Notes under the pieces: model-generated | The model's input: only the letters and a program-made list of their open reading frames with translations | Database searches by the model: none | What the model was told of the DNA's origin: nothing | Made by a program: the position numbers and the translations under genes | Shown here: one piece after another, positions 2,535 to 60,935 of the stretch | How positions within the stretch are numbered: the stretch's first letter is position 1 | Layout of the letters: each line of letters starts with the position of its first letter | Source: Takakia lepidozioides | Lineage: Eukaryota > Plantae > Bryophyta | Direction of reading: 5' to 3' | Assembly (NCBI GenBank): GCA_030704615.1 | Contig: CM060731.1 | Coordinates: 14,942,001 to 15,006,000, forward strand | Length of the DNA: 64,000 nt

Positions 2535-3890
2535 TCAATATAGGTTGTTTTGTTTTGTTTTGTAGCGTCCTTGAAATCTCCCAAACCATGGGGCCAGCCT
2601 TGGTGCTTGGTGCCCTTGGAAAGCCCTCGATGAGGAGGGGTGCACCGGCTTGGTCTCGTAATTTTTGGACCCGCGGTGTGGGAGATAGGGCGCAAAGATA
2701 TATTTCAATATATGAAGCCTCGACATGGGAGATTCCAAAAATAGCAAAGTGGGCATTCCTGGACCGTTGGAGCCTCGACATGAGAGATATCAACAGGAAG
2801 GTCTCTGATTCAAATCAGGTCGTAGGCTCTGTGAAAAAAATGATTAGATGACATTGGACACTTGAGCCAACGGCACAGGCTACCCTAGTCAATATACGAA
2901 GCGGGACGTTTGTTTTGTTTTGTTTTGTTTTGTCACGTTGAGATGTCCCAAACCGCGAGGCCCTAGCCCTGGTTGCTTGGTACTTTTGGAAAACCCTCGA
3001 CCGGGTGCACGGGCTTGGTTTCATGATTTTTGGACCTGCGGTGTGGGAGATGTGGAATTTCAAGTATTTTGGGTCGCTGGAATCTCACGAAAAATAGCAA
3101 AGTGGGCATTCCTAGACAATGGTTGGAGCCTTGATAGGAGAGATATAAAGGGAAGGGTCTAGGCTCTGTGGAAAAAAAAAATGATTAGACTTGGATGACT
3201 TAGATGACATTGGACACTTAGATGGAGATCATACTTGGGCCTAGACATAGGAGACGCACTTGAATACATAGGAGATTGCACTTGGGCTTACATGACCCTG
3301 GGCACTTGAGCCAACGGCAGAGGCTACCCCAGTCAATATATGAAGCGAGACGATTGTTTTGTTTTGTTTGTCACATTGAGATGTGCCAAACCGCGAGGCC
3401 CCAGCCTTGGTTTGGTACCGTTGGAAAGCCCTTTGACGAGGAGGGGTGCACGGTCTTGGTCTCATGATTTTTGGATGTGCGGTGTGGGAGATGTGGAATT
3501 CCAAGTACTTTTGGTCGCTGGAAATTCCTGAAAAATAGCAAAATATGCATTCTTGGACAATGGTTGGAGCCTCAACATGAGAGATCTCAAGAGAAAGGTC
3601 TCCGGTTCAAATCTGGTCGTAAGCTCAATGGAAAAAAAAGATGGGATATGGCTAAAACAAATTTGAAGTACTTTTGGTCGCTGCACAATGATTGGAGCCT
3701 CAACAGGAGAGGTAGCAAAAGAAAGGTCTCCGGTTCAAATCTGGTCGTAGGCTCTGTGGTCGCCTTGGGCCTCGACATAGGAGGCGCACTGGGATACATA
3801 CGAAATTGCACTTGCTCTTAGATTTCAATTTTTCGCACTTGGGCCTCCACATAGGAGATACATAGAAGATCCTACACTTGGGCTTAGATG
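2535..3890 (+). repeat. Tandem array of about 3.5 diverged 350-450 bp units, interrupted by the Copia element and resuming at about 6845-6875
   Basis: Recurring blocks TTTGTTTTG..CCAAACC, GGAAAGCCCT, GCGGTGTGGGAGAT, AAAAATAGCAAA, TTGGAGCCT and AAGGTCTCCGGTTCAAATCTGGTCGTAGG. The motif GACATTGGACACTT..GCCAACGGCAC recurs on the far side of the Copia. Confidence 0.8.
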
Positions 3891-3893
3891 ACA

Positions 3894-6844
3894 TGTTAGA
3901 ATTGAACAAGAACATGAACAAGAACTAAAGTCTTAGACTAAAGCTAAAACTAAAGCTCTCATCCCAACCATAGAAGCCACCATCATACTTTTACACTTAG
4001 ACTAGTGGCTTCACCCCCGAGCTTGTACAAGAAGGTCTCTAGAAAGTCCTACTTGGTCACTTCCACTTCCACTATGGTGACCATCCACCTTCTAGCCATT
4101 CACCTTCCAAAGATGAGTTAAACAAGATAGTCTCTTAGACTTCTAAACCTTTGGCGTTCAAGACTCTTTAGTCTTCTAGATATGTTTAATTACTTCCAAC
4201 ACTCCCACTCAATTAAACCATATCATTGAGCTACTTCGTTTGTCTTTGAAGAAGAGACACCAAGTAAGGCTGAACACTTCATGTGTTTTGTTTGTGGTAG
4301 ACTCTTCGTCAAAACATCTGCAACCATATCTCCTGTAGCACAATAGATCATGTTGATCTCTCCCTTGCATACAACTTCTCGTATGTAGTGATGTTGCACT
4401 TCAATGTGCTTCGTCCTTAAATGATACTTCGGATTCTGACTTAGTGCAATTCCACTTTGATTGTCACAATAGAGAGTCGTAGGTAGTGATTGGAGATGAT
4501 CCAAATTTCCAAGCAACTTCCGTAACCAAATAACCTCATTTGCTGCTTGTGTAATGGACATGTACTCAACTTCTGTTGATGACAACGCTGTTGCAACTTG
4601 TCGTTTGCTAGACCAAGATACAGCTCCACCTACTAGGAGAAAACAATGGCCTGAAGTTGATTTTCTACTATCAACGTCTCCTGCCCAGTCAGCATCAGCA
4701 AACCTCAACAAACTTGGATCTTCCACTCTCTTGTAGAGTAGACCAGAGGTTGATGTTCCTCTTAGATATCGAAATATCATCTTCACTGCTTTCCAATGGG
4801 TTTGTCCGGGATTTGAAAGAAATTGTGAGACCACTCCCACTGAATGTGCAATGTCTGGCCTAGTACAAACCATGCAATACATCAAACTGCCGACTGCGCT
4901 TTGATAAGGAGTTTTCCTCATATCTTATTGCTCTTCTTGAGTCTTAGGTGCCATATCATTCGTAAGTTTCAAACCAACTTTGAGAGGAGTTGATGTTGGC
5001 TTACCATCTCCAACTTAAACCTTTGTAGAATTGTCTCAATGTATTGTCGTTGATGCATGAATATTGTATGGTTCACTCGATCTCTGCTGATTTGAATACC
5101 AAGACAGAACCGAATCTCACCCATGTCAGTCATGGCAAACTCTCGATGTTGCTTCCCTTCCAAGCAACCTTTGCATAGACGCATATCGCTCATCTCTTTC
5201 AATGGTAGTCCTTCCACAAGATGGCTTGAGAGTTGCATCTGTCTCAACTTTTTAATGCTCAAATGACCTAACCTTCTATGCCACAACTCTGTTTCTGACA
5301 TGACAGGTGTAGATCTCAACTGTGGTGAAAATATGGTAAGAGCACTAGAGACATGATGTTGTAATCTATACAAACAATTATCAAGAATAGCTCTTGCTAC
5401 CACAGCTCCTGAGCTATCTGTGATAGTACAACTCTCATCTTGGAATACCACTTTGTATCCCTTTGCAACAATTTGCCTTACAGACAGCAGGTTCTTTGTT
5501 AAAATAGGGACATGTATGACATTTTCCACCTCTATGGTTTCCCCTTCATTGAGCATAAGAGAGACTGAGCCTTCCCCACCAATGACATGCTTGCTATCAT
5601 CTCCCAAAAGAACATATTGTGTAGGTGAAAGAGATCTATAGGATAAGAAATGTCTCTCTCTGTGAACTCATATGTGCTCCTGAATCAACATACCACACAT
5701 GCTTCTGTCTAGTAGTGGCTGAGAGAGACACAACAAATAGAATAGCATTCCTCTGATGAGTAGCTATGTTCCCTTGACTCTCTCTGCTGCGCTCATCTGC
5801 AATGCGCTTTCTACAATCCTTGATCATGTGACCAAGTTTATTGCAATAAAAGCACCTCACTTTGGCATTTTTGATCTTTGAGTTAGATTGAGGTTTCTGA
5901 AACCTCTGGGACTTCTGAGACATATGTGAAGAGAGTCTTCTATTCAAGACTACTCCAGTCATGTCTGTGAACAAAGCTCTGTCTACCTCTGTAGACGTAC
6001 CTTGACCTTTTCTTCTTGTTTCCTCCTTGAGGAGAAGTCCTATGACAACATCAATAGTTAAGTTGGTTTGTCCTGCTAGAGACACCACAAAACCATCATA
6101 GGATTCAGGTAAGGTTGCCAATAACACCACTGCGGCGTGTTCATCAGTCACATTAGTTCCCACAGAGACTAGTTGATCTCGCAACACACGAAACAAATTC
6201 AAGTGTTGTTCAACTGAGTCTGACTCGGTCATCTTCAGACCATAGAACTTTTGCGTCGCATACACTTGCGATGTGACATCCTTCGTCTCATATATGTTTG
6301 CTAGCTTGTCCCAAACATCCTTAGCATTCTTTGCACTTATAATGAAATGCAACTGATTGTCTCTCAAGCTTGTGATGCTAGCTCTTGCTTTCTGATCTTT
6401 CCTATCCCATATGGCTTGGCCAACAATAGTGTCAGGTCTTGGGACTGATCCATCAACCACTCCCCATAGATCTTTGTCTAGAACGACCATCTCCATCCTA
6501 AACTTCAAAGTTTGATAGTTAGCTCCATTGAATCGATCTTCCACTCTCACATCTAATGCACTCGTCATAGACATAGAATGAGGATTGCTAGAAGACGACG
6601 CTCCAGCCATAATCAAGTTCTCAATCTCAACTACCAACTCTCACCTAGAGAAGAATGGCTCTGATACCATGTTAGAATTGAGCAAGAACATGAACAAGAA
6701 CTAAAGTCTTAGACTAAAGCTAAAACTAAAGCTCTCCTCCCAACCATAGAAGCCACCATCATACTCTTACACTTAGACTAGTGGCTTCACCCCCGAGCTT
6801 GTACAAGAAGGTCTCTAGAAAGTCCTACTTGGTCACTTCCAACA
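3894..6844 (-). mobile_element. Ty1/Copia LTR retrotransposon, internally deleted and non-autonomous
   Basis: TG..CA LTRs at 3894-4201 and 6670-6844. 5-bp TSD TGACA (3889-3893, 6845-6849). tRNA-iMet PBS TGGTATCAGAGCCA on - (6656-6669). PPT TTGAGTGGGAG next to the 3' LTR. Confidence 0.95.
4223..6637 (-). pseudogene. Copia gag-pol remnant: Gag with CCHC knuckle, protease, GAG-pre-integrase, partial RT, RNase H
   Basis: CFYCNKLGHMIKDC, WYVDSGA, LWHRRLGH..CKGC, then directly MTDMGEIRFCLGIQI; YQSAVGSLMY..TRPDI; ADADWAGD..RKSTSG; TKHIEVQHHYIRE. Frameshifts near 5640 and 4975. Confidence 0.93.
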
Positions 6845-7174: not shown

Positions 7175-9618
7175 TCACGAGTTGGAGAGACATTCAGGGG
7201 GTGGTGTGGGGTACCTATACACATCTGTACAATAGTTGTAAATCATGAAATTTTCCTCAACTTGCTTCAACTTGTCAACTTGGCCAATGCTCAGAGACTG
7301 GAATCCAGGCTGGCCCCACCACTGACTCCCAGAAGATGATGCACACATTTCCATGGAACCTCCTTCAGGACAGCCATCAAGCATGAACTTAGTGTAGGAT
7401 GCAATAAAAGGTGCATCGTTCCAGTCGATCTTTACATTTCCATGCTGTGTTGCCCAATCCTCTCCATTCCAAATGGTCGAGTAGATTCCCATGCTTTGGT
7501 ACATGGGGTAGGGAACCCCCAAAACTTGGTTATTTTTGAAGACTCGAATTGGTACATCATCAACAAAGAAGCTACATGCACAAGCATTCATGATGGTAAG
7601 AAACATTGCAAACATAGGTGTTAAAGTACACTGATTTAGATCATTTGCAGTCTTACAGGATTGAAGTGTCTAGAGAGGATCAGGTTGATGCATTCTGGCG
7701 CAGACGAACTGGATGTTTAACTGTTGTTGTAATACTTGTGGACCAAGTGGTGCTTAACCTGGGCTAGTGCTTGGGTTATGATTCCAAGTCATGCTCCTTA
7801 ATAAACCAATTTAAGATACATTCTCATTGCAGATGATGACCTGATAGTATTTCCTAAATTTGTGGGCATTTGATTACTGAAGGTTCCTGCTTTATGAAGT
7901 ACTTAGCAGCATGTCTACTTTTACAGTCTGAAAATTCGAATAATATTTGAAGGAGTATCTTCACTGAATGTTTTCATGGCTGGCAAGAACAGGATTGTAT
8001 CATATTGCTGCTTCCATGAATGAAATGAGTCCAGCATGCCTTGTACTGCATGCACAATCCAACATTTGTACTTTATGCTCTGAGCAAAAGGCATAGTAGA
8101 CTCACACAATTTGCTGTTGGTTCCACAGGAAAGAATATGTGTGAAAATATTCTGTAGGGTCAAACCACAGATAGATTCGCTGCTCCCGGCCCCCTTGTCC
8201 ACTGACAAAGACATTTGTTTGCAGAATGTAAGGCTGTCCTGAGGTGTTACCAAGGAACTCAAAGTCCAGCTCATCGTGGTTTGCAGTCTGAGAGTGCATC
8301 TGGAATTGACAACATTACAAGACTTGAGGAAATTAGAAGCTTTGAAATCCCATGTCTTGTGCTTCAACTTTACAACTTTCCAAGGAGCTTGACATAAGAT
8401 TTATCTAAAAATCCTTTGCAGATGGAGACGAATTTACGACACATTGAAACCACTTTTTGAGTCCCAGTCAAATAATGACAGCTACGGTCGGGAAAACCTT
8501 CAAGTTCAGATTTCTGTAATCCCTAGAAAATCCATACATGACTAAACTCTGCGCAGAGGTGCAGCCTGGACATCAGGGCAGTTGCAAGAATTTAGATGCA
8601 GTTTAAAGCCTGTTGCAGAGCACGATGTTAAACGCAGGTCAGCATCCAGGGCATTGGGAATCCAGGAACAATTGAGGTGGTTTGGCATCCTTGTACTGTG
8701 CCAATTTCCTCCCCAATTCCAAGGAAGCTCCTTATTGTCATCTGGAAATTTTCACCGAGTATGTGAAAGCCCTTCTCTAGTTTGAAAAGGGCATCAATTT
8801 TTCAAAATTTGAACATACACATTGACTGAGATCTCTCACGGAAAATTAGTAGAACTTTCTGGTCAATGGCAGTGAATGGAGTATAGCTAGACATTGAAAT
8901 CAGAACTCAGAAGGACTAGGGATGATCTTACATAGTAAGCAGTGACTGTGCCTGCAGAATTTCCAGGGACCAACTTTAGTTGAGTGCTAACGTATCCAAA
9001 TAGGTACTTGTTCAATGACCTGTATCCACATCCTGCAGCCCACAGAGGCACTTCACGTTGATTGAGTGCAAATTGGAACCATCAACTGATTTTATACACC
9101 TTGAGGCTTGGAGACTCCACCACATCCCACTGAGAAGGGAGAATGCAATGGAGATGTTCTGCATAAGGAGCCTCATGAATGCAAGTCTGTCTCTCTTTCA
9201 GAAAATGATAGTCTCTCATTCAAGTATCAAGACTGTTGATAGTCATGCATGTGAGAGGCAGATTGTAGTGACAGTTCAGGAAGTAGCACTTAGAGACAAA
9301 CAACAGAATCACATCAAGGACAGGTGTACTAAATTCATGCCGAGGATGAATAAGGCGGACAAAATTGAAGCTTCATATTGCATGGAACTCACCAGACTTC
9401 TGATCGAGGACAAGCTGCACGGTATTGCCATTATCCAGGGTGATGAAGTGGTCTGCAGACCATGCGACCGTGTAAATATTTGCAAAAGGTTCAGCCTGGA
9501 CTCCAGCAGTTCCATGGTCGGAGAATAAAAAGAAAAGCAACAGCGTTGTCAACCACCCACTCTGGCGCTGTTGAGATTTTCTGTGGCCTCCCTGGGAAGT
9601 TTCATGTAGCTCCCCCAT
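7175..9618 (-). CDS. XTH: Xyloglucan endotransglucosylase/hydrolase (GH16). Exons 9393-9618, 8932-9032, 8106-8299, 7175-7571
   Basis: Catalytic motif [11 protein letters not shown], plus [40 protein letters not shown] and C-terminal [17 protein letters not shown]. All introns are GT-AG and in phase. Internal exons of 101 and 194 bp match the usual XTH structure. Start ATG (9618) is the least certain point. Confidence 0.95.
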
Positions 9619-27292: not shown

Positions 27293-29049
27293 TCACAATG
27301 TGCACCTCCTCCACGTGACACTATAAGGCTCTAGTACTAATCTAATAGTGACACGGGTGGGCACCTGTTGCAGTCTAAGGGTCATATCCCAATGGCTCAG
27401 GGCACCTGCACCTGCATCCACCGCAAGAACTCCTATGGTTGGCTGGTCATCAACCCAGCCTCACCAAGAAGAAACACTGGTGGTCTTGCTGGTCATCACT
27501 CCAGCCTCACCACCGACAGCATACTCTAGGATTGACCGGTGATCAAATCCGGCCTAATCCCTATGAAAGCAAGCGCCCACACAAAACCAACATGGCGCAC
27601 AGTCAAGCATGCAGGTGTTGGGGGGGATCCAAACACAAGAAATCAAAACATCAACACCCCCACACCAAAATCCAGCAGCAACGCTGATCCTGCAGAATAT
27701 CCCAGCCCAAAACCCCGGACTGACTGGCCTCCACCAAGAGAGGCTTTGGCAACTACAAGTACAAGGTAATGAAAATAGTACAGAGATGGGGGGAAGAATA
27801 GAAGCCGCCCAAGCAAGATCTAATCCTGATCTATGCTATCAACTTCCAGACTTCTCTCAAAGTGCCTCGCTCTGCATGATGGTAAGGTGTAGGAGGTATA
27901 TCTATGTCCAGAAACCTGCCACTAACTTGTCCCAAGCTACAGTAGCTCGCTCTAACCAACCCTCCTCCTCTTTCTGCCAGGTAGAGACAAAGCAACACTC
28001 TGCTATCTCCCGCTCACTGAACACTAAAGAAAACAAAGGTAGGGTCTGATAGTCTCTCAACTCGAAAGCTTTGAGACGGTTGCGGGTGTCCTTCATTGCG
28101 AATGACTGCATCGCCTTCAAACAGAACAAACTTGTCATTGCTAATGAACCCCCGCTCGTGGTTGCCTTGTGCAGAGCGGTCCGCTGCAACACTGTCTAAT
28201 TGCACAAACTTGTGCAGCTCCTGCTCCTCTGCTCCAGTACACCACGGCCTTGTGGCTGAACACCTTGGTCCCCGGGGCTGTTTGGCTGTGTTCCAAGCCT
28301 AGCTTTCACCCACTTTGGTATTTCACCTACAGCTGCAGAACTGCTGGCTCCAACAGAGTTCTGACTGTCCAAGGCGATATTGAGGCCCTCAATGCCAACT
28401 ACAGCAGTCTGTTGTCTACTGCTAATGCCTGACTCCCAGTATGCAATCAACTCGTCCAACTGTTCTCCACTCAAATCAGTCTGAGTTCCTTGGGAAACAT
28501 AAATCGTGTCCCCTTGTGTGCACAGCTAAGAGAAGAGACCTGCCCTTCAATTACGTCCTCATTTCCCCCAGCCATGCAAGAGTACATCCACCAATTTGTC
28601 TCTCATATAGACCAGCACAGGTTCTAGAGACAGATTGTGGATCTTTTGATGGCACACTCACACTCTAAAAATTCCATAGATTTTTAGCAGAGTCCCCAAA
28701 ACAGAAACCTGCATCCAGCCGTCCTCAACATAGCGTCCCACTCCCTCTGGGCCTTGCCATCACACCACCAGCTGCCATCGACATATCCTCCGCAGCCGGC
28801 GACGCCCTTACAGTGGAAGCACACCTCGCCAATGCCAACAGAAATATGGGCAGACCACCATTACTCTCTCTTCTACCACACCATTGCGACTGGAGATGTG
28901 AGATGAACTCAAGCTAGAGCCGTTCTATGCTCCTTGCTTGAGCTGCGTACAAGACCATGACCATCTATATTATAATAGTGCTTAAAAAAACAAAAACATC
29001 ATATCTAGCTTAGCACTGGAAAACTAGATAGTGCTCATCTCTCTCGAGT

Positions 29050-29404
29050 GATAACCAAACTAGATAAGGACACACACTCTCAACACAAGAAATATGCAAT
29101 CCCTCAACATCACTCTTTAAGATAATAGTCGAGCCAGGGGCACCCCAAGCTATGGGACTCACCCCACAAACAACCTACACTCCCATCATAAGCACACTCA
29201 GATCTGAAGAATGCAGGAGCTCGGTCGCGCAGGCTCAACTCGAGAGAGAGGAGCTGCGCGACTGCCGCTCTCGTGAAGATAAGACGGACCAGGTGTCAAA
29301 CTAAACTTGACACCTGATTTAACACTTGACCTAAATCCAAGTGTTAAATACAAATAACTAGTTTTATGCTAGCTGTTTTCACACTGTGCTTATTTAACTT
29401 GACA
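29050..29404 (-). repeat. G1 5' terminal repeat (A only)
   Basis: Near-identical to 19381-19729. Ends TTGACA on +, followed by the TSD. Confidence 0.95.
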
Positions 29405-29975: not shown

Positions 29976-30207
29976 ACTTGGTTGTCGAATGGAAAAGATA
30001 ATGAGAGTGGGGGAATTCTCGTCGATCATATATCACATATGTGATAGTATGGATGAGGTGCAAATGGAAACATACTCTTATTTACACTAACTTCGGTTGG
30101 CGTTCTCTCTCATAGTATGGATGAGGGATGAAAACCTCTCTACATAAACCTTGGGGAAGGATTTTAACTTAATGTTTCTTCAAAGTGAATACCACAGTCA
30201 TTCTAAA

Positions 30208-30352
30208 GTAAAAGGTATGACACCTCCGCAAGGAGGTTGGATCACAGCAGGATGGTGGATAACTTTGTGACACCAATTGTGGATTGACCACCGCGACCAC
30301 TTCCAATAAAGTTTGTGCCCATTGCCAGTGGTGGATAACCAGCGGATATAGA
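30208..30352 (-). repeat. Dispersed repeat of about 145 bp; a paralogue at 47005-47141 + 52081-52090 is split by element G4
   Basis: Shared GGTTATCCAC..TGGCAATGGGCACAAACTT..TGGAAGTGGT..AATTGGTGTCACAAAGTTATCCACCATCCT..GGAGGTGTCATACCTT. Confidence 0.85.
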
Positions 30353-38950: not shown

Positions 38951-39631
38951 GACACTCAACCGGTCATGAACATGTCCCTAACCCCTCTCACAAGGTAACC
39001 GAGAACCTGTTGCGGCTTATGGTTTGGAATACTAAGTTCCTAACATAGCCTACACCTGTACCTGCATCCACCGCAAGCACTCCTATGGTGGCTGGTCATC
39101 ACCCCAGCCTCACCATCGACAGCATGCTCTAGGACTGGCCGGTGATCAAATCCGGACCAATCACCTATAAAAACAAGCGCCCACACAAAACTAGCATGGC
39201 GCACAGTCAAGCATGCAGGTATGGAGGGGATCCAAACACAAGAAATCAGACGACAACTCCCCCCACCAAAAACAACTCCACGGTGTTGCTCCTGCAAGGA
39301 CACCCCAGCCCAAACCCGGACTGACTCTTGCCTCCACCTACGGAAAGGTCTTGGCCTAATGAGAGGGTGGAAACTACGAGGAAGAGAAGCTAAAGCAATG
39401 CCTAACCCCAGCATGCCCTCATCCCAACACTCTTCCTCTCCTCTCCCTCACTTGCATGACCATGGGAATATCATGAAGATACTCCTCAAACCGCCCTCCA
39501 CGAGCTTCAAAATTCGGCCTTCCAGACCACATGCCAGTCCTTAGGCAGTCCACCAGTGCCTCCACGAGTCAGCACAGGCCGTCCACAGGTCAACACGGGC
39601 CACACCAGCACAGGCCCACACAGCTCACTTC

Positions 39632-40168
39632 CACAGGGCACAGCCTGTCACAGCCCCTCACAGCCCGTCACAGCCCCAAAGGCCCAGGCACGCCTGTCAC
39701 AGCCCCTCACAGCCCGTCACAGCCCCAAAGGCCATGGGCACGGCCTGTCACAGCCCCTCACAGCCCGTCACAGCCTCAAAGGCCATGGGCACAGCCTGTC
39801 ACAGCTCGCCACAAGCCTGTCACAGCCCGTCACAGCCGCACAGGCCTCAGGCACAGCCTGTCACAGCCCGCACAGCCCGTCACAGCCCCAAAGGCCACTG
39901 GGCACAGCCTGTCACAGCCTGACACAGCCCGTCACAGCCCCACAGGGCACAGGGCACAGCCTGTCACAGCCCATCACAGCCCATCACAGGTCACAGCTTG
40001 CCACAGCCTGTCACAGCCCGTCACAGCCCCACAGGCCACAGGGCACAGCCTGTCACAGCCCCTCAAGCCCGTCACAGCCTCAAAGGCCTCAGGCACGGCC
40101 TATCACAGCCTGACACAGCCCGTCACAGCCCCACAGGGCACAGGGCACAGCCTGTCACAGCCCATCAC
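39632..40168. repeat. Minisatellite of 9-10 bp CACAGCC(T/C)GT units with a roughly 50-bp higher-order period, in the G2 5' internal region
   Basis: Dozens of CACAGCCTGT / CACAGCCCGT / CACAGCCCCT units. Confidence 0.95.
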
Positions 40169-40664
40169 ATGGCCGCTCTGGCAGTTTAGCCATTTCTCCA
40201 AGGGGTTAGCCACGCCAAGCTAGGGTTGTGTGTCTCTGGACTCTAGGCTTCTTTCCACCGAGCTATGGTGGCTGTGAGGAAATCAGCAAGGTATCCTTGC
40301 TCTTTCGGCTCCCACACACCACCATAGTAGCCCCAAGCCATGAGGTGGTTGCCACAACCAAGCCTTCTTTCTCACTTAGCCTCCCCAAACACGCCACTAA
40401 ACTCAATGGCAAACAACCAAGCCCTGCTGGTTCCCAGCCCTTGTGAGCACTCATTCAAGCACTCCCCTCATTGGCCATAGCATCTGTCTTAGAGCCTATT
40501 CCAGCCCTCTACACCTGTTGCTTCAAGAGTTGCGCTCCCTTCAAGCTTGAAGTTGAAACCCCAACTCACATAGGCCCTACAAGTGCTTTCTTTCACTCCA
40601 AGTGGAAACCAGCCCTAGACCTTCCGTTCTAGCTCTCTAAGGCTTGAAAACAAGAGCCTCAATG

Positions 40665-41000: not shown

Positions 41001-44000
41001 AGATATCAGCCCCCTATCTTGGCTCCTTGGCTCCTTGATGCTCTCTCTATGACAAGACTAAGCACTCCATAGCCTTTGCCAAGCTCCTGAAACCCTAAGG
41101 CTTACATTTCCAGCCACAAGACACTTCTCTTGTGGTGCAAGAACTCTTCTTCCAAGCTCTGAAACCTAGGTGCACATTCCATGGCCTTGCCGCACCTCTT
41201 AGCTCCTGATCCAGCCCTGCTCTTGCCATGACAAGAGCCCTCTCAATGCTGAAGCTCGAGATTGAAACCCAATCTCACCATACTCCACAAAGTGCACTGA
41301 TTTGCCCCAAGCAAAATCAGCCCTTTCGCTTGGTCTTGCAATCCTTCACACAATGAAAGCTCGCATTCCCAAGTCCAGTTCTCAGCTTTGCCACCAAAGC
41401 CACTATAACCTGCTCTTGACTGGTCCTCTTCCCAATCGTGCTTGCTCATGCATGTACACAATCTGGAACCATCAAGGTGCTCTGGAATTACCTGCAGCAT
41501 GGTGCTTTCATCTCTGAAGCTGAAGATCGAATGCCAAGGTCTACCACCTCGTAACCCACATCGCCTCCGCTTCTAACAACTAAGAGCTCCACGGTGCTCC
41601 TTGCATAACAACTTGGTTTCTCTCATTCTCAAGCAAAAACCACAAGTGCTACAACTAACTCGTATCTGGCACTCACAGATACGAGCTGATCTTTCTCGAG
41701 TGATAAAGAAGAAGAATACAAGCACAAGCTCATGCGAGCTCACAAAGCTGAAGCATAAACTCATGCATATATAACCTCATCACTCAAATACAAGTCAAGC
41801 CAAGTGCACCCCACGCCATGGGGAATCCACACTACGGCGCCATAGCTAGGCGCGGTGAGGCTCAACTCGAGAAAGATGAGCCTCCCGCGCTTGCCGTGAA
41901 GATAACCACTCCAGGGCCTAAATCTGCCTTGACCCCTGGATTGACACTTGGGCCAATCCCAAATGTCAATATGTAAAAGCTAGCTATTTCCTAGCTAGTT
42001 TCACACTAGTGGTAAAATAACTTGACAATGTTGTTAATTTGCATCATATTTTATTTGTTTGTAATATTATGTGGTTTGTTTGTAAGATGTTTTAGAAACT
42101 AACATTGCAGTGTGATTTGCAGTCCCAATTGGCATGGGTTGGGCAGATTGGTCCAACCCCTTTTGCATGCAGGCGACCCGGATTATGCTTTGATGTGCCC
42201 AGAAGACTAGTGAAGGATTGGCCATCAATAGCGTACATCCCCAATCCCAAAGATTGTTGGGATGACAATACCATCTTGGAGTACACATAGCTATGTGAAT
42301 CTATGTTGACAATCCGACTTGCTGTCTCTTATGATCCATTGCTGAATTCCACCGATTCTTCACACGACGATGATTTGTTCGTCGCGCCTCCACGCGGAGT
42401 TGCTGCCATCCGTAATTTTGTGCTCTATTATCAACGTGAGCTTTATGTCAGAAAGCCAATCTTCTCAATCACTAGATGTGGGATGAAGCAACATATTGCC
42501 CATGATGGATTGATCCGTGGAGTTTCACGATCAAATCAACGATGAAATCAATCATTGACATGAATATGAATATTCCGAGGAATTAGATACGAGGGAATTG
42601 GAAAAATATCTAGTATGCTGCACAAGTAATACATAATATGTCATAAGCTCATTTGAGGCATTTTAATCAACCATCTTACATAACATTTGGTTCTTAAAAG
42701 AGACAAAGAGTCTAGCCTAAAATAAGAGATTGTTTAATTCTTCTAACTAGACTTTCTTTAGCTTCCCATGGCTTCTCAATGGGTGAGGCGCCTTTGGGTG
42801 GTTCACTGTACCTTCTGGTTCGCGCCTTTCCAGAGGAGATTTGTGTTTTGTCGATTAGAAGACGTAACTCTTCCAATGGAAATCTTAGTTGAAAGTGTCC
42901 AATTCCCGAAAGTGGGCGGATCCTAAAACGAGTGTTGTTTGACTAATCATAGCTGGAAAGAGATGACTTTTTGATGTGGAAACGTGGTCGGAAGTAGTCT
43001 GAAAGGGAGTTTGAAGAAATTTCTGCCCTTTACAACTTTACTGTGACAATGATGGGCTACTTGGAATACTGTCAGCAAAGCTTGAAACATGTTGATACAA
43101 TGAGTTGCAAAATTTGTCTTGCTGGTGCTACAGCCTTGACGCCTGGGGTTCAAGTTATTGATTGGCATGCAATTTTAGAACTACACCCTTGTTTGCAAGA
43201 GGATCTGCACAGCTGTTTGCCTGAAATGGCCATAGGGGATTTGCTGGCAACCTTTTGGAGACGTTAGCACTCTAGACTATGGTCATATATCTGTGAAGAA
43301 CCTACAGCTTCACTATGGGGTGACGTCAACTGATCTCTAGCCAATCTTGCCTCAGCATCACACAACATTCTCCCTCTAGGATTTGCACGGATCCGACGAT
43401 AATCATGTTACAGGTTCATTTAATGTCAGTGTAAGGGTTGGCTTTGGCATCATACCAGGAAGCAAAATGTTGATTCTTTGCCGATGTAACCCTCTATGTT
43501 ATACAGAGGTGACACATGTGGTTGCACTCTCAGTCAAACCGTCCTGAGAAATGGCTAGAGAGGTGAACTTAAATATGTCATGGGAAAGACAAAGATAGAA
43601 ACAGTTTGATGACGACAAGGGCCCATGGAACAAAGTAGAAAAACGAATTTAAATTTGTGGGAAGGCCAAAGCACCCAAGAGACATAAGAACAAGAACCCA
43701 TGAACCACACAAGAAACAAATGGTAGTACGAACAACTAAGCGTTGTGTGAAGGCAAAATGCCTCAGAAAGACAGTAAGAAAGAAAATCTGCAATGTCGTG
43801 TGTGTTTGTAACAGTGCACAAAGTCCACATTACTGGACATCAGAAGAAGTGAAGAATAAAGAATGAAGTTGGGAACAAGCGGAAGTGGTGGTTGGACTAG
43901 CTCCAACCAACGTCTTCTAGTTGTGCATGCCCATGTGTATGCAAAGATTCTGAGAATTTATAATATGTCCTTGTCAACATCTGTTGATGTTGGTAATACT

Positions 44001-46025: not shown

Positions 46026-47141
46026 TTAACGACATCATAAATTACACTTCCTTAGGCAAGAGTGTTTTTCTTTTTAACATACATCTATCTATTAAAATTT
46101 GTTGATGTGTATTTGTAATATATTAATAGATCTAAATTTTCAAAAAGAGCAAGAATGAAGTATTAAGAGTTTTGGCATTAATCATTGTCCTATTTATAAC
46201 ATATTTATTGCTATTGTAATTTGTTGCACAGACTATACATTTGTGCAACGATTTTAGATTCAAAATGTATATCAGTCACATTTGTTATTGGCTTTGTAAA
46301 TAAACAAAAGAACAAAAAAATATTTGACGCTATCCATTTCATCCTACTATGCTGACTCATGAGCATTTAAATTGATTCTTCATGTCCAATCATGTGTGGT
46401 TAAAAAAACAAAAACTTAGACTTACTTTTCTAACTTATTTTAACAGTATATGGATAAATAAAGTAGTATTTAGAGCAGTAATGATTAGAGCAGATTTTTA
46501 CAAAAACAATCTTTTTGCATTATTTCATTTTATTTCCTTGGTTTTTGGTCTGGAAATTCGAGCAGCTTCAGAACAAAGATGAAGATGACATTGAGGCTGC
46601 CAATGATTGATTAGAATGATTGTTTGAAATGATTCAATTTTCTTAATGGAAATTCCGGTAGAGTTTAAAACAAACGGCGATTATATGGAGGCTGCCGATA
46701 AAAATGATTACTTTGGAGTTATTCGATTTCTTTTGGGCAATTTGGGTAGCTTAAAAAAGGATGGTGATGATGTGGCACTATGGCACCATATTTCCGCTCT
46801 CCGATAAAACTAGTCTCCGACTTTTCAGATTTCACTAAAATTACATTGCAATGGACGTACAGAAGTGGTGGGACCTTTCCACTATCTTAGGTTTAAGACA
46901 TTGTGTACAAAGGATTGGGACCAATGTTGGGTACAAAGGATATCCGCCGGGTATTGACGAGTATTGGCCGGATATCCGCCAGGTGTATAGAATATTTCTT
47001 TCACATTGTCATAACCCTTGGTTATCCACTAGTGGCAATGGGCACAAACTTCCTTGGAAGTGGTTGTGGGTTCAATCCACCAATTGGTGTCACAAAGTTA
47101 TCCACCATCCTACTGTAATTAAGCTTCCTTGGGAGGTGTCA

Positions 47142-50100
47142 TGTAAAGCCTCAAAACGAGCCCGAGGCATATACTCCCTTCCTCTCAAGAAACGTGTTTT
47201 CACAACAAAGGGGCAAGCAAAAGAGCAGGCAATGCGCGAGGGGAGGATCAAGCGGGCGAATCTGACACACATAGGAGCTCTCATCCAAAGTTTGTATACT
47301 CGAAACACATATACACTAACACCTGAATACACCGCCCTGACCTTGTGTCAGGGCGCCGTCTTTATACAAAAGCCCTAAACATGGTGCCCTGCCGCGTGGC
47401 GAGGCATCATAGGCCAAAGCCCACAACGCCGCGTTGTAGCCCTAGATCTGATGAAGGGCCAGGATCTGATGAAACGGGTTATTTCCAAGCGTAAGCAGGT
47501 ATGGGGCTTTACATCTGTGAAACCTACCCCCTACGAAAAATCCTGAGCTCCGTGAAGGAAAACAAATAATGGGAAAATATCACCCTCCGCTGCTTGGTGA
47601 AAAACCTACCAAGGGAAAACCTGGCACCTGCAAGTTGGGCCGAGGACAAAACCCCTGGCTAGGAAAACCGTGCAGGGAGTACAAATGGTGAGATGTCATA
47701 AAATATGCAAAGTCCTAGAGATGTCAAGTCCGAGGACCCCAAGAGGCATCAGCTGCAAACTAAGACTAAGCCGCAGTGGAGTAAGCTGAAGTAGATCGCT
47801 AAGAAGATCAAGACATCACCCCACCGTGCGCCCCTCCACATTGATACATGTGAGATCAAAAACTAGCTCGGAATGCACCAAGGCTGTCAAGGAAACAGGT
47901 TCATCCCGCTCTTCAGTGTTAGAGCCTTGGGGAAGAAGAAGAGCACGTTGCCCACGTAAAATCTGATAGATCAAATATGGACTGTCGATCTTGAGCTTAG
48001 ATTTGCATGCATGCTTGCCATGCTGTAATCGACCGCACACGGTCTGTCCCACGTGAAACATGTTAGATTAATACTTGACACGCTTGTAAAAATTACAGGC
48101 CTGGGTTAGTTGAGCCTTACCAATGTTCGTCTTGGCATCATGGATAGACACCACATGGCGAGCATGAAGATCCTCAACAAAGGTCTCAAGATCAACCGGA
48201 TCAGCAATATTAGAGATAAGAAGGGTAGAATGCAAATGAGAAACACACTTGCGACCATACAACAATTCAAAAGGTCTTCTTAGTACTAGCATGCATGGCG
48301 GTGCAATAAGCAAAGAGAATAGGGGAAGAAAGGTATCCCACTCCCTGGTAAGTGCGCCATTCTTCTCCAACATTCGGCAAAGAGTTTGGTTGAAGCGTTC
48401 CGTGAGGCCATTGGTCTGGGGATGGTACGGGGGCGGTGGTGGAATGCTTGACACCGAAGTTGAAGCAAACTACCGTGAGGAACTGGTTACAAAACTCCTT
48501 GCCCTGATCCGTTATTATCTCCCGAGGACACCCATGCCGCATAAGGATCTCATTGAAGAAGAACTGAGCTACAACATCACTAGCCTTGGAACGCAAAGGC
48601 CGGACTTCTATCCACTTAGTCAAGTAGTCGGTAGCAACACAAAGGTAGCTTCGACCCTTTGATGTGAGTGCGAGGGGTCCTACCAAGTCAATGCCAACAC
48701 GAGCAAAAGCATGGGTGACAAGCAAAGGCTGCAGCTCATATAAGATTCGGGCCCTAGGGAGAGCAATGTGAGCACGACAACCTTCACATTTAGAGATGAA
48801 CTCGGTGACGTCTCGGTGAATTCCCAGCCAATATTATACCTCTTGGATGCGGGCCACAGTTTTCTTGATACTAAGGTGACCTGCATATAAGAAACAATGG
48901 AAACGCTCCAATAAAGCATTCAGGTGGCTCCGTGGTGACACCTCCAAGTAGCATGGCACTCCCCCTCTAGCGAGCTCCTTGAAAAGTTTATCACCCATAA
49001 AACGGTGAGTAGACACATGGTAGAGAATTTGTTTACGCAAGGACTCGGAAAGGCCAGCTGGCGAACACCCTGATTGGCATCGCTGGAGTAACGCATCATG
49101 TAGTTGATCATCCATGACTGCACTACACATAAGAGGTAGACAATGGGATTTAGAGAAGGTGGTCTGGAGTGCCTGCACCTATGATCTCCAGCCAGGGATA
49201 CCTTCACCTCATTTGTTATTACTCATGGACAGTCAAATCAGGCCTTGAGGCTCAAGCCAATAGTCACACCGGAGTGCAGCAGCTGAATCACAACAAACTC
49301 GGGGGCCTAGGAAAGAGAAGGACTGAAACTCAACAAGGAACTTCCACCAAACTATCCGAATTCTCGCGAAGCGATAGATCCACCACACATACTAACACAC
49401 GAATAAATCAACCAGGATCATCTAATAGGCTGAACCAGCCCCAAGCAGACAATATGCCATGTGAATCCAGGGACAAGGGTTGCTGATCTGCACAAAGAAG
49501 GTTGAGAAGAGGGGCAGGATTAGGAGGAGGGGCAGCATCAGCAGCAACCAGGTCATCCAAGGTGAGCATAGGCCTGCTGACAGGAGGATCAACCCGTGTG
49601 AGTGCATCAACATTCGTGTTTTCTTTGCCCTTCTTGTAGACTATATCCATGTCAAATTCCTGCAGGTACATAGCCCATCTAGCAAGTCTGCCATGAAGTT
49701 CCATAGGCTTAACAAGAGCCTTCAGTGGAAGATGATCAGTCTTTACCACAAACCAGCTGCCATGTAAATATTGCCGAAAATGCTTCACACCAAAGACCAG
49801 GGCTAGACCCTCCTTATCAGATATGGAATAATTCCTTTCATGACGATCTAGATGACGAGATGCATAAGCTATGACATGATCCTTGCCTTCTATTACTTGA
49901 CATAAGATTGCGGAGATGGCAACATCAGATGCATCAGTCTGAAGCAAGAAATGTAACTCAAAGTTGGGAAATATCAGGATGGGAGCTGAATACAAAGCCT
50001 TGCGAAGGGTGTCAAAGGCAGCATGCTGGGAGAAAGTCCATTCAAACCTGACATCTTTGCATAACACCTTGGTCAGAGGGTGAGCAAGCTCGGCAAAGTT

Positions 50101-52076
50101 CTTTATGAAGCGCCTATAATAAGAAGCCAGACCAAGGAAGGATTTTATACAATGTTTATCCCTGGGGATAGGAAAGCCCCAAACAGACTCAAGTTTGGCA
50201 GGATCAGGAAGCAAACCATCTTTGGACAGAATATGACCAAGAAAGTGTAGCTCAAGCATGAACAGCTCACATTTCTTGGGCTTTACTTGCAGTGCGCAAT
50301 TTGCTGGAAACACGCTGCAGATCAGCTAAGTGAGCATCAAAGCTGGCTGAGTGAACATTGATATCATCGACATAAATTAAAGCACACTCCCAGCGAAGAT
50401 TGCCCAAGACAATGTCCATGAGGCGTTGGAAAGTAGAGGTGTCATTGCACAAAAGACATGGTCTCATATTGGTACTTACGCTGTTTCAAAAGCAGGTACC
50501 TGACAAAATCACGATGTTGGATGACTGCACATGTAAACTACCTCCCACGAGACCATCCACCAAGTCCACCGCCGTGGGCTTGTCACGACAGACCCGAGCG
50601 TGAAATCAAAGAGCTCGCAATAACAAGGCTCCAGAGCCTTCAAGCAGCAACGAGAGCCGCGAGCCTGCTGTCCGTTCAGTCGTCTGCCACAGGCCCGACT
50701 CACGGCGAACTGATAATGGTAGGTGGAGCCCGAGCGCTTCCCAGGCCACCTGCCAATGATGAAGAAGACGAGCCTTGAACACCTTTGGTCGCAAGCACAT
50801 GGAGTTTCTGACGGCCACGATGGCTCGAGTCTGGCACAACGCACTCTCTCTCCCAAAGCCAGAACTAGACCTAGGTCGCACAAAGATTGCTTCGTGATGA
50901 CAGTTTAGACGATGAGCATCCTCACGAATAGATTCTTCAAACTTTTCAAACCACTGCACATCCTCCGGAAGCAATTCTCCTAGAGACTCATCATACTCTT
51001 GAGAGCGCTCAATATCCCTCTCAAACTCTCTCTCCCGTTCTCTCGGACACTCGTAATCAGGACCTGGATCATAGAAATTGTCAAAATTATAGTACTCAGG
51101 ATCGCAGCTATCTAAAGAGCTGGGTGACCTCTCCTCTTTTGGTGACCAGTCAACATCATATCTAGGGCTATTTGAATTCAGATGCACGACAAGACCAGGA
51201 CCATCAGTGATGGGTTGAGGCAGGGGTGACACTGGCAAGACAATAATGCCAAGTAGCGCATGTCGAGAGGGGTTAGTGACAGCAAGATCAGTTGCTACTG
51301 CCAAAGCAGGGTTAGTCTCAATCTCAAAAACCAAATCAACTTGCACCGACAGACTTTCTCCCTCTCTGCGTGCTACACAGCTAGTACTACGTACCGAGGC
51401 CATCGTCCTGCAGCACAACACAACGAGCAGGGTGAGAAAGCAAATACGAAACAGCAGGAGAAAACATCGCAAGGTGGCTGGCCGCCATCAGACAAGACTG
51501 ATTAGAGAGCAAAAAGCAGAAGATTAGCGCGCAGATCCCTCAACAACCCAACAAATGGTGTCAGGGCGGGTAGCGGATGCTAAAACACCTAGATAGCTAC
51601 TCGGCTTCTCTCAACCACAAAATGAGCCCGAGGCATATATTCCCTTCCTCTCAAGAAACGTGTTTTCACAACAAAGGGGCAAGCGAAAGAGCAGGCAATG
51701 CGCGAGAGGAGGATCAAGCGCGCGAATCTGACACACACATGAGCTCTCATCCAAAGTTTGTACACTCAAAACACATATACACTAACACCTGAATACACCG
51801 CCCTGACCTTGTGTCAGGGCGCCGTCTTTATACAAAAGCCCTAACCATGGTGGCCTGCCGCGTGGCGAGGCATCATAGGCCAAAGCCCACAGCGCCGCCT
51901 TGTAGCCCTAGATCTGATGAAGGGCCAGGATCGAGCCACCGGCCTAAACTAACCCTAACCTAGACATCATTGTAACGGATTAACGGCTTTATACGCCAAA
52001 AATATACTATGAATGTGTATCGCCGTTTTGGATGAAACGGGTTATTTCCAGGCGTAAGCAAGTATGGGGCTTTATA
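47142..52076 (-). mobile_element. G4: decayed, internally deleted Ty3/Gypsy retrotransposon of a second family
   Basis: Terminal repeats 47142-47513 and about 51614-52076. 4-bp TSD GTCA (47138-47141, 52077-52080), supported by the uninterrupted paralogue at 30208-30352. The CA end at 52075-52076 (+ strand) is mutated to TA. Confidence 0.9.
48000..50445 (-). pseudogene. G4 pol remnant: RT C-terminal half, RNase H, integrase
   Basis: TFQRLMD..LIYVDDI, KCE..FLGH, FLGLASYYRRFI, LQTDAS, TDHLPL, RVGIDLVGPL, IITDQGKEF, YHPQTNGLTERFN. Several frameshifts. Gag, protease and the RT N-terminus are not visible. Confidence 0.9.
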
Positions 52077-52641
52077 GTCATACCTTCTTTTGTCTCCCAG
52101 AAGAGGGGATAGCAGTCCTCGAATTGTACTGCAGATGGTGGGAAAAATAACCACCAAAAGGCAGTACCCATCCATTTTTTTTATATTTCTGCCTACTCGT
52201 GGACGTGGCGAAATTTGTTTGGGTTTAAGTGCAGAGGTGGCGACTTGCACAATGTCCACCTGGATCCTACCTGGCTACATGGTGATAGGTGCAGGTGACG
52301 AAATCGTATTGATTCTTGATGCGATGGGGCGCCAGCCCTTGGATTTAGGACGCAATGCTCCCCGATTCCCAGGCGAAATGGGTGGTTCCTCTGCTGCTTT
52401 CTGGCACCAGTTGCCCAGGAACTGCCACTTTCTGGCGAAGTTTTTTATTTTTGGCCCTGTTTTTTGCATAGTAGTTGTCGCATGCCAACATTTTTTGGGT
52501 GCTTTCAGGTTTTTTTTCGCCTAAAAAGATAGGGCAAAAAAAGACACACCATATTTCCTTGGGAGGCATCGAACCCTTTTCTTTCCCATACCATTCTATG
52601 GTGGGATGGGTATGTATGAAGCATGTATGAAATGGTATACC

Positions 52642-59610: not shown

Positions 59611-60935
59611 AGTAGCACCAACAGTCAGTACCTCAGATGGTAAGATACACTGAGTGCCATCCGGATGACCCTGGGGTCAAATCCTGCTATTTGACGGTTG
59701 TGGTAGAGAGAAGGGGCCTGATTTGTGAGCTGTCGCTCCCAGGTGTTTCCCTTCTCAAAAAAAAAAACAAAGTAGCTGACCCATTTTCCAGGTCGAAATT
59801 CGCCACATCTAATTGTGTAATTCGTGCGTGTTATCCATTTATAAAATTATGCGATGTATAATTGTGTAATTACATAGAATTACAAAGATGTGTAATTCGC
59901 CACCTTTTGTAAAGGGGTTTCAAAAAAGATGGTAGAAAGGCGATAGTTATTAAATGGAGGATGTAACATACCAGGGCCACAAAGGACGCAGGAACGCAGC
60001 TGGACGGCCGCAAGCATAGTACCGTACGTTGTTGTGTTCCCTATGGTTGGTCGAGATCGTGGCCCATCCAACGTCCCACATTTTTTCACCCTTTCATCTT
60101 CTATCTTGTATAGTTATCCTGCAATGCATCCCGGCAGGTTATCCACTTGAGTTTCGGAGGCCTTAGAGAGGCACCGTACACCAGGTTCGAAACACAAAAT
60201 CAGTTCGAAACACAAAATCATACCTGCCGTCGTCGCTATTGTCGACCTCCTCCCTTCCCTATCGCACGTCACAGTGGGTGGGTTTCGAAAAATCATTATA
60301 TGTGTTGTGTACATAAATTACTAAGGTGGAAATGGTTCACCTTGGACATGTGTCACGATCTTATATGGTGCGCCTGATTTTGAGACGTCAAGAGGCTCTG
60401 GCGGCACTCTTGGGGGACGCACTGACACTGCTGCGCCCCCGGCGATGTGGGAGCTCCGTTCGGACGCTTGCGTCACTGTGGCCCTGGCATCAGGCACCAA
60501 ATTGTGTGAGCAGAATATATGTGTCAAGTGGTAGTTTCTAGGGGTGACATGTGTTGGGCAACCTTCTACAAAGGTTGAGCCGCCATCTTGCGATGGTATA
60601 TAAATGAGAGACTACTCCCTCAGCCCCTTCCTCTTTTGACTTGTTTTCTAAGTTAGTACCTACTTTTGTGAGCTATGCACATGCAGGCCCACACAAAATG
60701 ACGTAAACATGAACCATGGCTATATTAATTAATAGAAGAGCTGAGCTGAAATAAGGGTCCCAAATTTTGGGAGGGGTTACTCTTGAAGGTCGAAAACAAA
60801 AGAGCAGCCAATGGGGACGTCACGTAACAACATTTCTAAGACACTATAGACTAACCAAAACATCTACGCTACATCTACGTAGAAGCAATCTAAATATATA
60901 TATATATATATACATATGAAGATTTCCTTAAAGGG

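Follow-up and report, generated by a model that had tools for sequence, protein, structure and literature searches.

We investigated a Gypsy retrotransposon, G4, in a 64,000-nucleotide stretch of the genome of Takakia lepidozioides (Bryophyta; assembly GCA_030704615.1, contig CM060731.1, positions 14,942,001 to 15,006,000 of the forward strand), hereafter the window, in whose coordinates all positions are given. G4 (47142–52076, coded on the minus strand, decayed and internally deleted) is a dead copy of a tRNA-primed, multicopy Gypsy family, and its inserted ends are offset by about ten bases from the ends of reverse transcription. In coding sense, its parts run in the order A (52076–51618), primer site (51617–51600), internal region, polypurine tract (PPT), B (47525–47516), GA, A (47513–47152), and B (47151–47142), where A is a long repeat and B a segment of only 10 bp. 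These ends were probably produced by integrase acting on end-joined complementary DNA (cDNA).

Termini and repeat order of G4

An empty site fixes both ends of G4 and its target site duplication (TSD). GTCA flanks the element on the left (47138–47141) and on the right (52077–52080), and self-comparison of the window revealed an inverted paralog of the flanking repeat (30198–30241) in which GTCA occurs once, preceded by sequence matching the left flank of G4 and followed by 6 nt of the right flank. The 4-bp TSD proposed in the initial annotation, which had been made from the sequence alone, was thereby confirmed. The left end in the window is the 3' end of the inserted element. There, the terminal B (47142–47151, minus strand, 10 bp), whose coding strand ends with CA, is joined to the 3' copy of repeat A (47152–47513, minus strand, 362 bp, starting with TG), followed by a 2-nt spacer (47514–47515, minus strand, GA on the coding strand), the internal B (47516–47525, minus strand, 10 bp), and the PPT immediately beside it (47526–47534, minus strand), a G-run that appears as a C run on the plus strand. 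The spacer forms the center of a CA-NN-TG palindrome and is the likely cut site of integrase. As the initial annotation had described, the left repeat reads TGTAAAGCCT...CTTTACA (47142–47513), then TC, then TGTGAAACCT (47516–47525), which matches the terminal B at 8 of 10 positions in this copy, and then the C run. The right repeat, which is the 5' copy of A and the 5' end of the inserted element (51618–52076, minus strand, 459 bp), begins at 51618 with no counterpart of 47142–47151, again in line with that description.

The two A copies aligned with 345 matches, 11 transitions, and 6 transversions (17 of 362 positions differ) and with one 97-bp gap in the left (3') copy; public contigs showed that the 97-bp piece is a normal part of the family repeat. 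The A|B joint (47151/47152) is exact, with no base gained or lost, and the right terminus reads TA at 52075 on the plus strand, not CA. The suggested order A-internal-PPT-B-NN-A-B, with a B of about 10 bp and a CA-NN-TG junction, was thus borne out; B is exactly 10 bp long, and other family copies share it. G4 has the features of Ty3/Gypsy elements (Metaviridae), namely the pol order, a short TSD, and a tRNA primer site together with a PPT. Conversely, it departs from the canonical form of a long terminal repeat (LTR) retrotransposon, as its 5' repeat lacks B and CA in both copies available and its PPT stands 13 nt from TG.

Conservation of the layout in the family

Taken alone, the 8/10 match of the internal B is weak evidence. 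Matches of 8/10 or better to the terminal 10-mer occurred at 31 of the 64,000 plus-strand positions of the window and at 3 of the 4,086 positions inside G4, and matches of 9/10 at 2 of the 64,000, one of which is the terminus itself. What is unlikely is its location, immediately after the PPT with only 2 nt separating it from A; such a match at a fixed position has a chance of approximately 5e-4. It is the family data that decide the question of chance. Five of the ten public runs listed contained parts of G4; they came from two studies, with X1, X3, and X4 representing one sample and X5 the second study. Among contigs aligned on 47122–47590, position 47522 read G in a depth of 18790.6 of 18844.7 (X1, 30 contigs), 11483.5 of 11593.8 (X3, 19 contigs), 1448 of 1458.1 (X4, 11 contigs), and 13.6 of 13.6 (X5, 3 contigs), where summed contig depth is not a copy number and indicates only that many contigs share the junction. 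With G as the family base (more than 99% of depth in all four runs), the family internal B matches the terminal B of the window at 9 of 10 positions, and the transition at 47522 is private to the window copy. Additionally, 47532 was C on the plus strand in approximately 97–100% of depth in all four runs, so the G-run PPT of the family is longer than that of the window copy. Among the difference rows listed (14 more exist beyond those displayed), none concerned 47514, 47515, or 47519.

The PPT-B-NN-A junction is shared by other family copies in the public contigs. In one further contig, the repeat end was joined through CA-TT-TGTGAA (TT on the plus strand), that is, by the same junction with a different spacer. 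The alignment of a 1272-nt contig started exactly at 47142, with 1122 nt of other sequence beyond, and two further contigs started at 47146 and ran on into other sequence. B would thus be terminal in other copies too, provided that the 1122 letters are genomic flank, which we infer because this contig was not among the long pieces on the G4 leader. Together, these observations support the permuted layout as a family trait that is not private to the window copy.

For comparison, 82 Gypsy loci outside the G4 clade were collected by protein-guided scans (80 + 1 + 1), and an integrase was present in 66 of them, followed by a G-run in 16; none of the 82 was a G4-clade member, and one further protein-guided scan returned no loci. 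TG lay within 1–5 nt of the G-run in 12 of the 16 loci, the remaining four being doubtful PPTs, against 13 nt in G4. None of the 82 loci combined a PPT with a CA-NN-TG palindrome, save for one match that resembled an ordinary LTR end with a primer-binding site (PBS); the complete control locus L025 has plain TG..CA LTRs and CA-TT-TGG at its PBS. Exact DNA patterns yielded no matches for the G4 repeat end in metagenome contigs and none for the G4 junction in viral contigs. A profile search of 1.84 billion representative proteins was dominated by long proteins with multiple reverse transcriptase (RT) domains and added no new G4-clade member.

Primer site and 5' junction

The initial annotation had stated that no tRNA PBS accompanies the right repeat, and this proved incorrect. 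A decayed tRNA PBS occupies 51600–51617 (minus strand); its coding strand starts with TGG right at the end of A, which it abuts directly with no B and no CA between. A 371-nt contig of X5 (depth 4.66) aligned across the leader and A at 51433–51765. It departs from the left repeat exactly at 47152 and continues as a leader ending in a CCA motif, and its clean primer site is identical over 16 nt to the 3' end of tRNA-Ala(CGC); the window site differs from it by two substitutions and two additional bases. The matched tRNA is phage-encoded and may differ from the tRNA of the host itself. When the 15-nt primer motif was searched in viral contigs, 79 of the 80 loci listed among at least 120 matches were not tRNA ends and one was tRNA-Ala(CGC), although the 15-nt match holds by construction, so that only the tRNA identity and one further base are informative. 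This second copy is approximately 90% alike to the window copy, comes from a different study, and likewise has no B at its 5' repeat. The PBS next to the 5' copy and B next to the 3' copy both place the boundary of A at one and the same base. Because the PBS stands flush against A without B or CA, and because the missing 10 bp are precisely those behind the PPT, the corrected primer site strengthens the proposed layout.

These junctions also bear on whether G4 is simply an ordinary Gypsy element with two full LTRs (A+B), in which the final 10 bp of the 5' LTR have been lost from some copies, the 10-mer after the PPT being only a conserved look-alike of the LTR end. The 3' repeat alone is indeed a textbook LTR, with TG..CA termini and a 9-bp terminal inverted repeat, and just two 5' junctions have been seen. 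Moreover, Selgy, a non-chromovirus Gypsy group of Selaginella, is reported in passages of Neumann et al. (2019; PMC6317226) to have a 4-bp TSD (96%), a tRNA-Ala PBS (90%), a mean length of 5,044 bp, and no chromodomain, and it was collected with full TG..CA LTRs. G4 resembles Selgy in its 4-bp TSD, tRNA-Ala-type PBS, size of approximately 5 kb, and lack of a chromodomain, as judged by description, with no named Selaginella protein among the matches listed. Nevertheless, in two copies that come from different studies and are approximately 90% alike, the identical 10 bp are missing at one and the same position, where the PBS directly adjoins A, and a copy without B in its 5' LTR could not hand on B by normal reverse transcription. 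Throughout the family, 13 nt separate the PPT from TG, and the bases that are missing are again those behind it. We regard an ordinary LTR element as improbable.

Self-priming was considered for G4 and rejected: the best complement to A was 10 nt long and lay approximately 48 nt from the end of A (fold z −1.14). Separately, A contains a 9-bp hairpin (CGCCCTGAC..GTCAGGGCG, 47330–47360), one arm of which is repeated in the leader (51557–51569), approximately 48 nt past A. This leader repeat could compete with the hairpin, but the hairpin and leader region folded no better than shuffles. Rfam and ARAGORN scans found nothing relevant.

Proposed route of integration

In LTR elements, minus-strand synthesis starts at the PBS and plus-strand synthesis at the PPT. 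The positions of these sites in G4 thus imply a cDNA whose repeat reads B-GA-A. Such a repeat starts with AG and ends with TG, so no CA end would be offered to integrase; the CA and TG ends would face each other ten bases inside the repeat, at the CA-GA-TG palindrome. We propose, with a probability of roughly 0.6, that the inserted ends of G4 arose from end-joined cDNA that integrase re-cut at this palindrome. The right end of the cDNA (A) would be joined to its left end (B), creating an A|B junction such as that at 47151/47152, after which integrase would open the palindrome beside the joint, lose the 2-nt spacer, and insert the DNA with a 4-bp stagger. The terminal B would then never serve as the template of the next round and would be rebuilt each time from the internal B.

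A partial precedent is found in human immunodeficiency virus type 1 (HIV-1): according to two reports (PMC1905944, PMC4372172), palindromic junctions between LTRs are cleaved by retroviral integrase, and integration can draw on 2-LTR circles. As in the route proposed for G4, the enzyme there cuts a palindrome of facing CA and TG ends within continuous DNA. However, the HIV-1 cut falls on the joint between the two ends, as a side route, whereas in G4 the palindrome has a genetically fixed position within the repeat, at a distance from the joint, and apparently holds the sole available CA/TG pair.

Several observations weigh against the re-cutting of end-joined cDNA. No intermediate was seen, and no long contig among the public contigs spanned a whole second copy. 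The 5' junction without B is represented by two copies only, the window copy and the single X5 contig of depth 4.66, and contig depth over the leader and gag side (50520–51605) was about one-tenth of that over pol, so most copies matching pol have a 5' part that is either unseen or more distant. At the other end, the 1122 letters beyond the alignment of the 1272-nt contig are flank by inference, and terminal base 47145 of other copies is absent from the difference rows listed, the starts being 47146 for two contigs and 47142 for one. The palindrome scan of the control loci (arms of 7, one mismatch) was a blunt control that missed the decayed window G4 itself, and the G4 junction folded no better than shuffles (z −1.24). 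In addition, since the two palindromes of a closed symmetric circle are equal, the mirror product A-B-NN-A...PPT-B would be expected too; all four Gypsy elements of the window nonetheless share one polarity, which has a chance of 1 in 16.

The shared polarity would be explained if the same layout arose with no closed circle, by RT jumping from the right end to the left end after plus-strand synthesis and copying B, and by integrase trimming the left end at the internal TG, since only the palindrome next to a DNA end would then be used. The exact A|B joint of G4, and the overlap or addition of at most 1 nt in the other Gypsy elements of the window, would also agree with such a template jump, and non-covalent circular intermediates belong to normal second-strand synthesis according to parts of a preprint (bioRxiv 10.1101/2022.09.25.509424). 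On the other hand, the literature searched contained no direct precedent for the jump, four elements are few, and the copying of B would need a signal to stop at its end, something that double cutting at the palindrome supplies automatically. We consider the template jump unlikely, and we retain the re-cutting of end-joined cDNA as the preferred explanation.

Retroelements with a DDE integrase are generally taken to use a linear cDNA end as the substrate, with end-joined circles as a dead end or side route. If our proposal is true, every cycle of a family in which the sole facing CA/TG pair is internal to the repeat requires either end-joining or a template jump from one end to the other, and a natural element would then allow the old question of circle integration to be tested. 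G4 would be the clearest instance of integration from re-cut, end-joined cDNA, since its two cDNA ends are marked to the base by the tRNA site and the PPT and both differ from the inserted ends. Such families would resemble normal LTR elements by eye and would be discarded by finders that demand CA at the 5' LTR end. The Selgy set was compiled in REXdb with a filter that admits only elements in which both LTRs have TG and CA termini, as described in passages of the same source (PMC6317226), and the 5' repeat of G4 does not pass this filter, which explains how such families escape catalogues. We suggest only tentatively, at somewhat less than even odds, that integration from re-cut, end-joined cDNA arose more than once in Gypsy, with either priming mode, and was hidden by the ten-base offset.

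Comparison with G1–G3 and phylogeny

The window holds three other Gypsy elements, G1–G3, coded like G4 on the minus strand. Their order is A-leader-internal-PPT-B-GC-A-B, with B of 85–87, 184, and 85 bp, respectively, G3 being truncated by the window end, and their A|B joints show at most 1 nt of overlap or addition. Within G1, G2, and G3, the two B copies agree at 96.6, 94.7, and 100%, respectively, against 80.6–85.9% between elements, as expected if both B copies come from one template in each round. The G1 and G2 leaders open with exact complements of their own A, of 12 and 13 nt (29038–29050; 41689–41702), and these complements differ between G1 and G2 at the same position in both partners, in step with A. 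This covariation suggests that Tf1-type self-priming is likely in the lineage bearing a DNA methyltransferase (DNMT), whereas G4 has a tRNA site. Tcn1 and Tf1 are self-priming chromoviruses in which a leader complementary to the LTR follows right after it, with a chromodomain and a 5-bp TSD; G4 differs from them in having no adjacent leader complement, no chromodomain, and a TSD of 4 bp. Apart from these features, G2 contains in its 5' internal part a tandem array of 10-bp-based units (CACAGCC; 39460–40180) that is absent from G1.

The pol of G4 had been described as clearly distinct from that of G1–G3, and it is: RNase H identity between G4 and G1/G2 was 41–46%, below that to many unrelated Gypsy proteins, and the two fell into separate clades. 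The closest named relatives of G1–G3 were from the liverwort Calypogeia (80%), followed by Marchantia, Closterium, Klebsormidium, and Volvox, a ranking that points to a probable bryophyte host. We built a tree under model LG+G4 with no outgroup from 44 of at least 179 eligible rows (5 of the G4 clade, 12 of the G1–G3 clade, 13 named others, and 14 random), in which G4 and P0241 were represented by only about 234 residues. G4 and four metagenome proteins (P0005, P0007, P0241, P0257) formed a clade (support 100/98), and G1–G3 with bryophyte and algal proteins formed another (100/100), with G4 outside. The initial annotation had called for an RT tree asking whether G4 and G1–G3 are sister groups. 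They were not sisters in the best tree, and three further analyses agreed, but forcing the two clades together cost only 14 log units and sisterhood was not rejected by the approximately unbiased (AU) test (p = 0.22). The further idea of a wider Gypsy lineage, taken as a single clade, was unsupported, G4 and G1–G3 each having a fully supported clade of their own. The data agree better with separate origins, or with an old trait retained by scattered lineages, than with a single compact lineage.

The same annotation inferred that the layout is independent of the methyltransferase. No DNMT similarity was found in G4, but the interval where DNMT would lie is deleted. In the G4 clade, P0007 (from an ENA metagenome) is the only relative with the whole protease-to-RT interval, and it carries a dUTPase between protease and RT and no DNMT. 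As far as can be judged from these sequences, the trait thus appears not to be tied to the methyltransferase-bearing clade; a miniature B with tRNA priming would represent a second, distant lineage with the trait.

Relation to known elements

The layout is in print once before, among the sources covered. The figure legend for KnitGypsy-Dnmt3 of Klebsormidium nitens (de Mendoza et al. 2018; PMC5890265) presents Gypsy domains with DIRS-type repeats, defined as A-coding region-B-A-B. KnitGypsy-Dnmt3, by this legend, and the G1–G3 lineage share the repeat order A-internal-B-A-B with G4. A Klebsormidium protein, P0206, which may or may not be KnitGypsy-Dnmt3 itself, sits in the G1–G3 clade. Compared with KnitGypsy-Dnmt3 as presented there, what is new in G4 is the ten-base B, the tRNA-type primer site, and the RT/RNase H of another clade, along with the lack of DNMT similarity. 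The main-text passages of PMC5890265, with its figure and supplements lying outside them, give no mechanism, no PPT or PBS mapping, and no CA-NN-TG junction. The literature search, which did not extend to Repbase reports, subscription papers, or the PMC5890265 supplements, yielded no account of this layout with a miniature B in a tRNA-primed Gypsy element and none of a KnitGypsy mechanism. The split-direct-repeat elements PAT, Ngaro, and Viper have the order A1-B1-A2-B2, as does G4, in passages of PMC4157794. Unlike G4, which has a DDE integrase, a TSD, a PPT, and a tRNA site, these elements encode a tyrosine recombinase (PMC4157794).

Coding content of G4 and other features of the window

The Pfam order in G4, read in coding sense, is RT_RNaseH, Integrase_H2C2, and rve, the Ty3/Gypsy pol order with a DDE integrase, and the best relative with a solved structure was Ty3 pol (E = 4.9e-38). 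The C-terminal part of RT (in two frames) and RNase H occupy 49408–50461 (minus strand; Pfam and translation), and the RT piece is 67–75% identical to its clade relatives. The integrase (47816–49178, minus strand; Pfam and translation) has an H2C2 zinc finger and an rve core and is broken by stops and a frameshift; Pfam gave no match to a chromodomain after the integrase core. No tyrosine recombinase matched by Pfam in the scanned G4 frames, part of the element being deleted. N-terminal RT, protease, and most or all recognizable gag are missing. An open frame of 293 codons stands at the gag position (50606–51487, minus strand), with no Pfam family and no match among the fetched proteins. The gag-side region (50520–51605) is subfamily-specific or fast-evolving, given its approximately 10-fold lower depth relative to pol and the repeats.

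G4 lies at the edge of a short repeat of very high depth (47011–47141) with a paralog at 30217–30349. We take this repeat to contain A-box/B-box-like motifs and to be perhaps a short interspersed nuclear element (SINE); other G4 termini did not match it. Elsewhere in the window, a Copia element (3881–6841) has matching repeats of 185 bp, the left one being shorter than expected at its PBS-side end, and presumably a tRNA-Met-type site. Pfam identified a piece of xyloglucan endotransglycosylase at 7175–7669. Finally, an exact 40-bp inverted match links 2004–2043 with 59711–59750, 57 kb apart.

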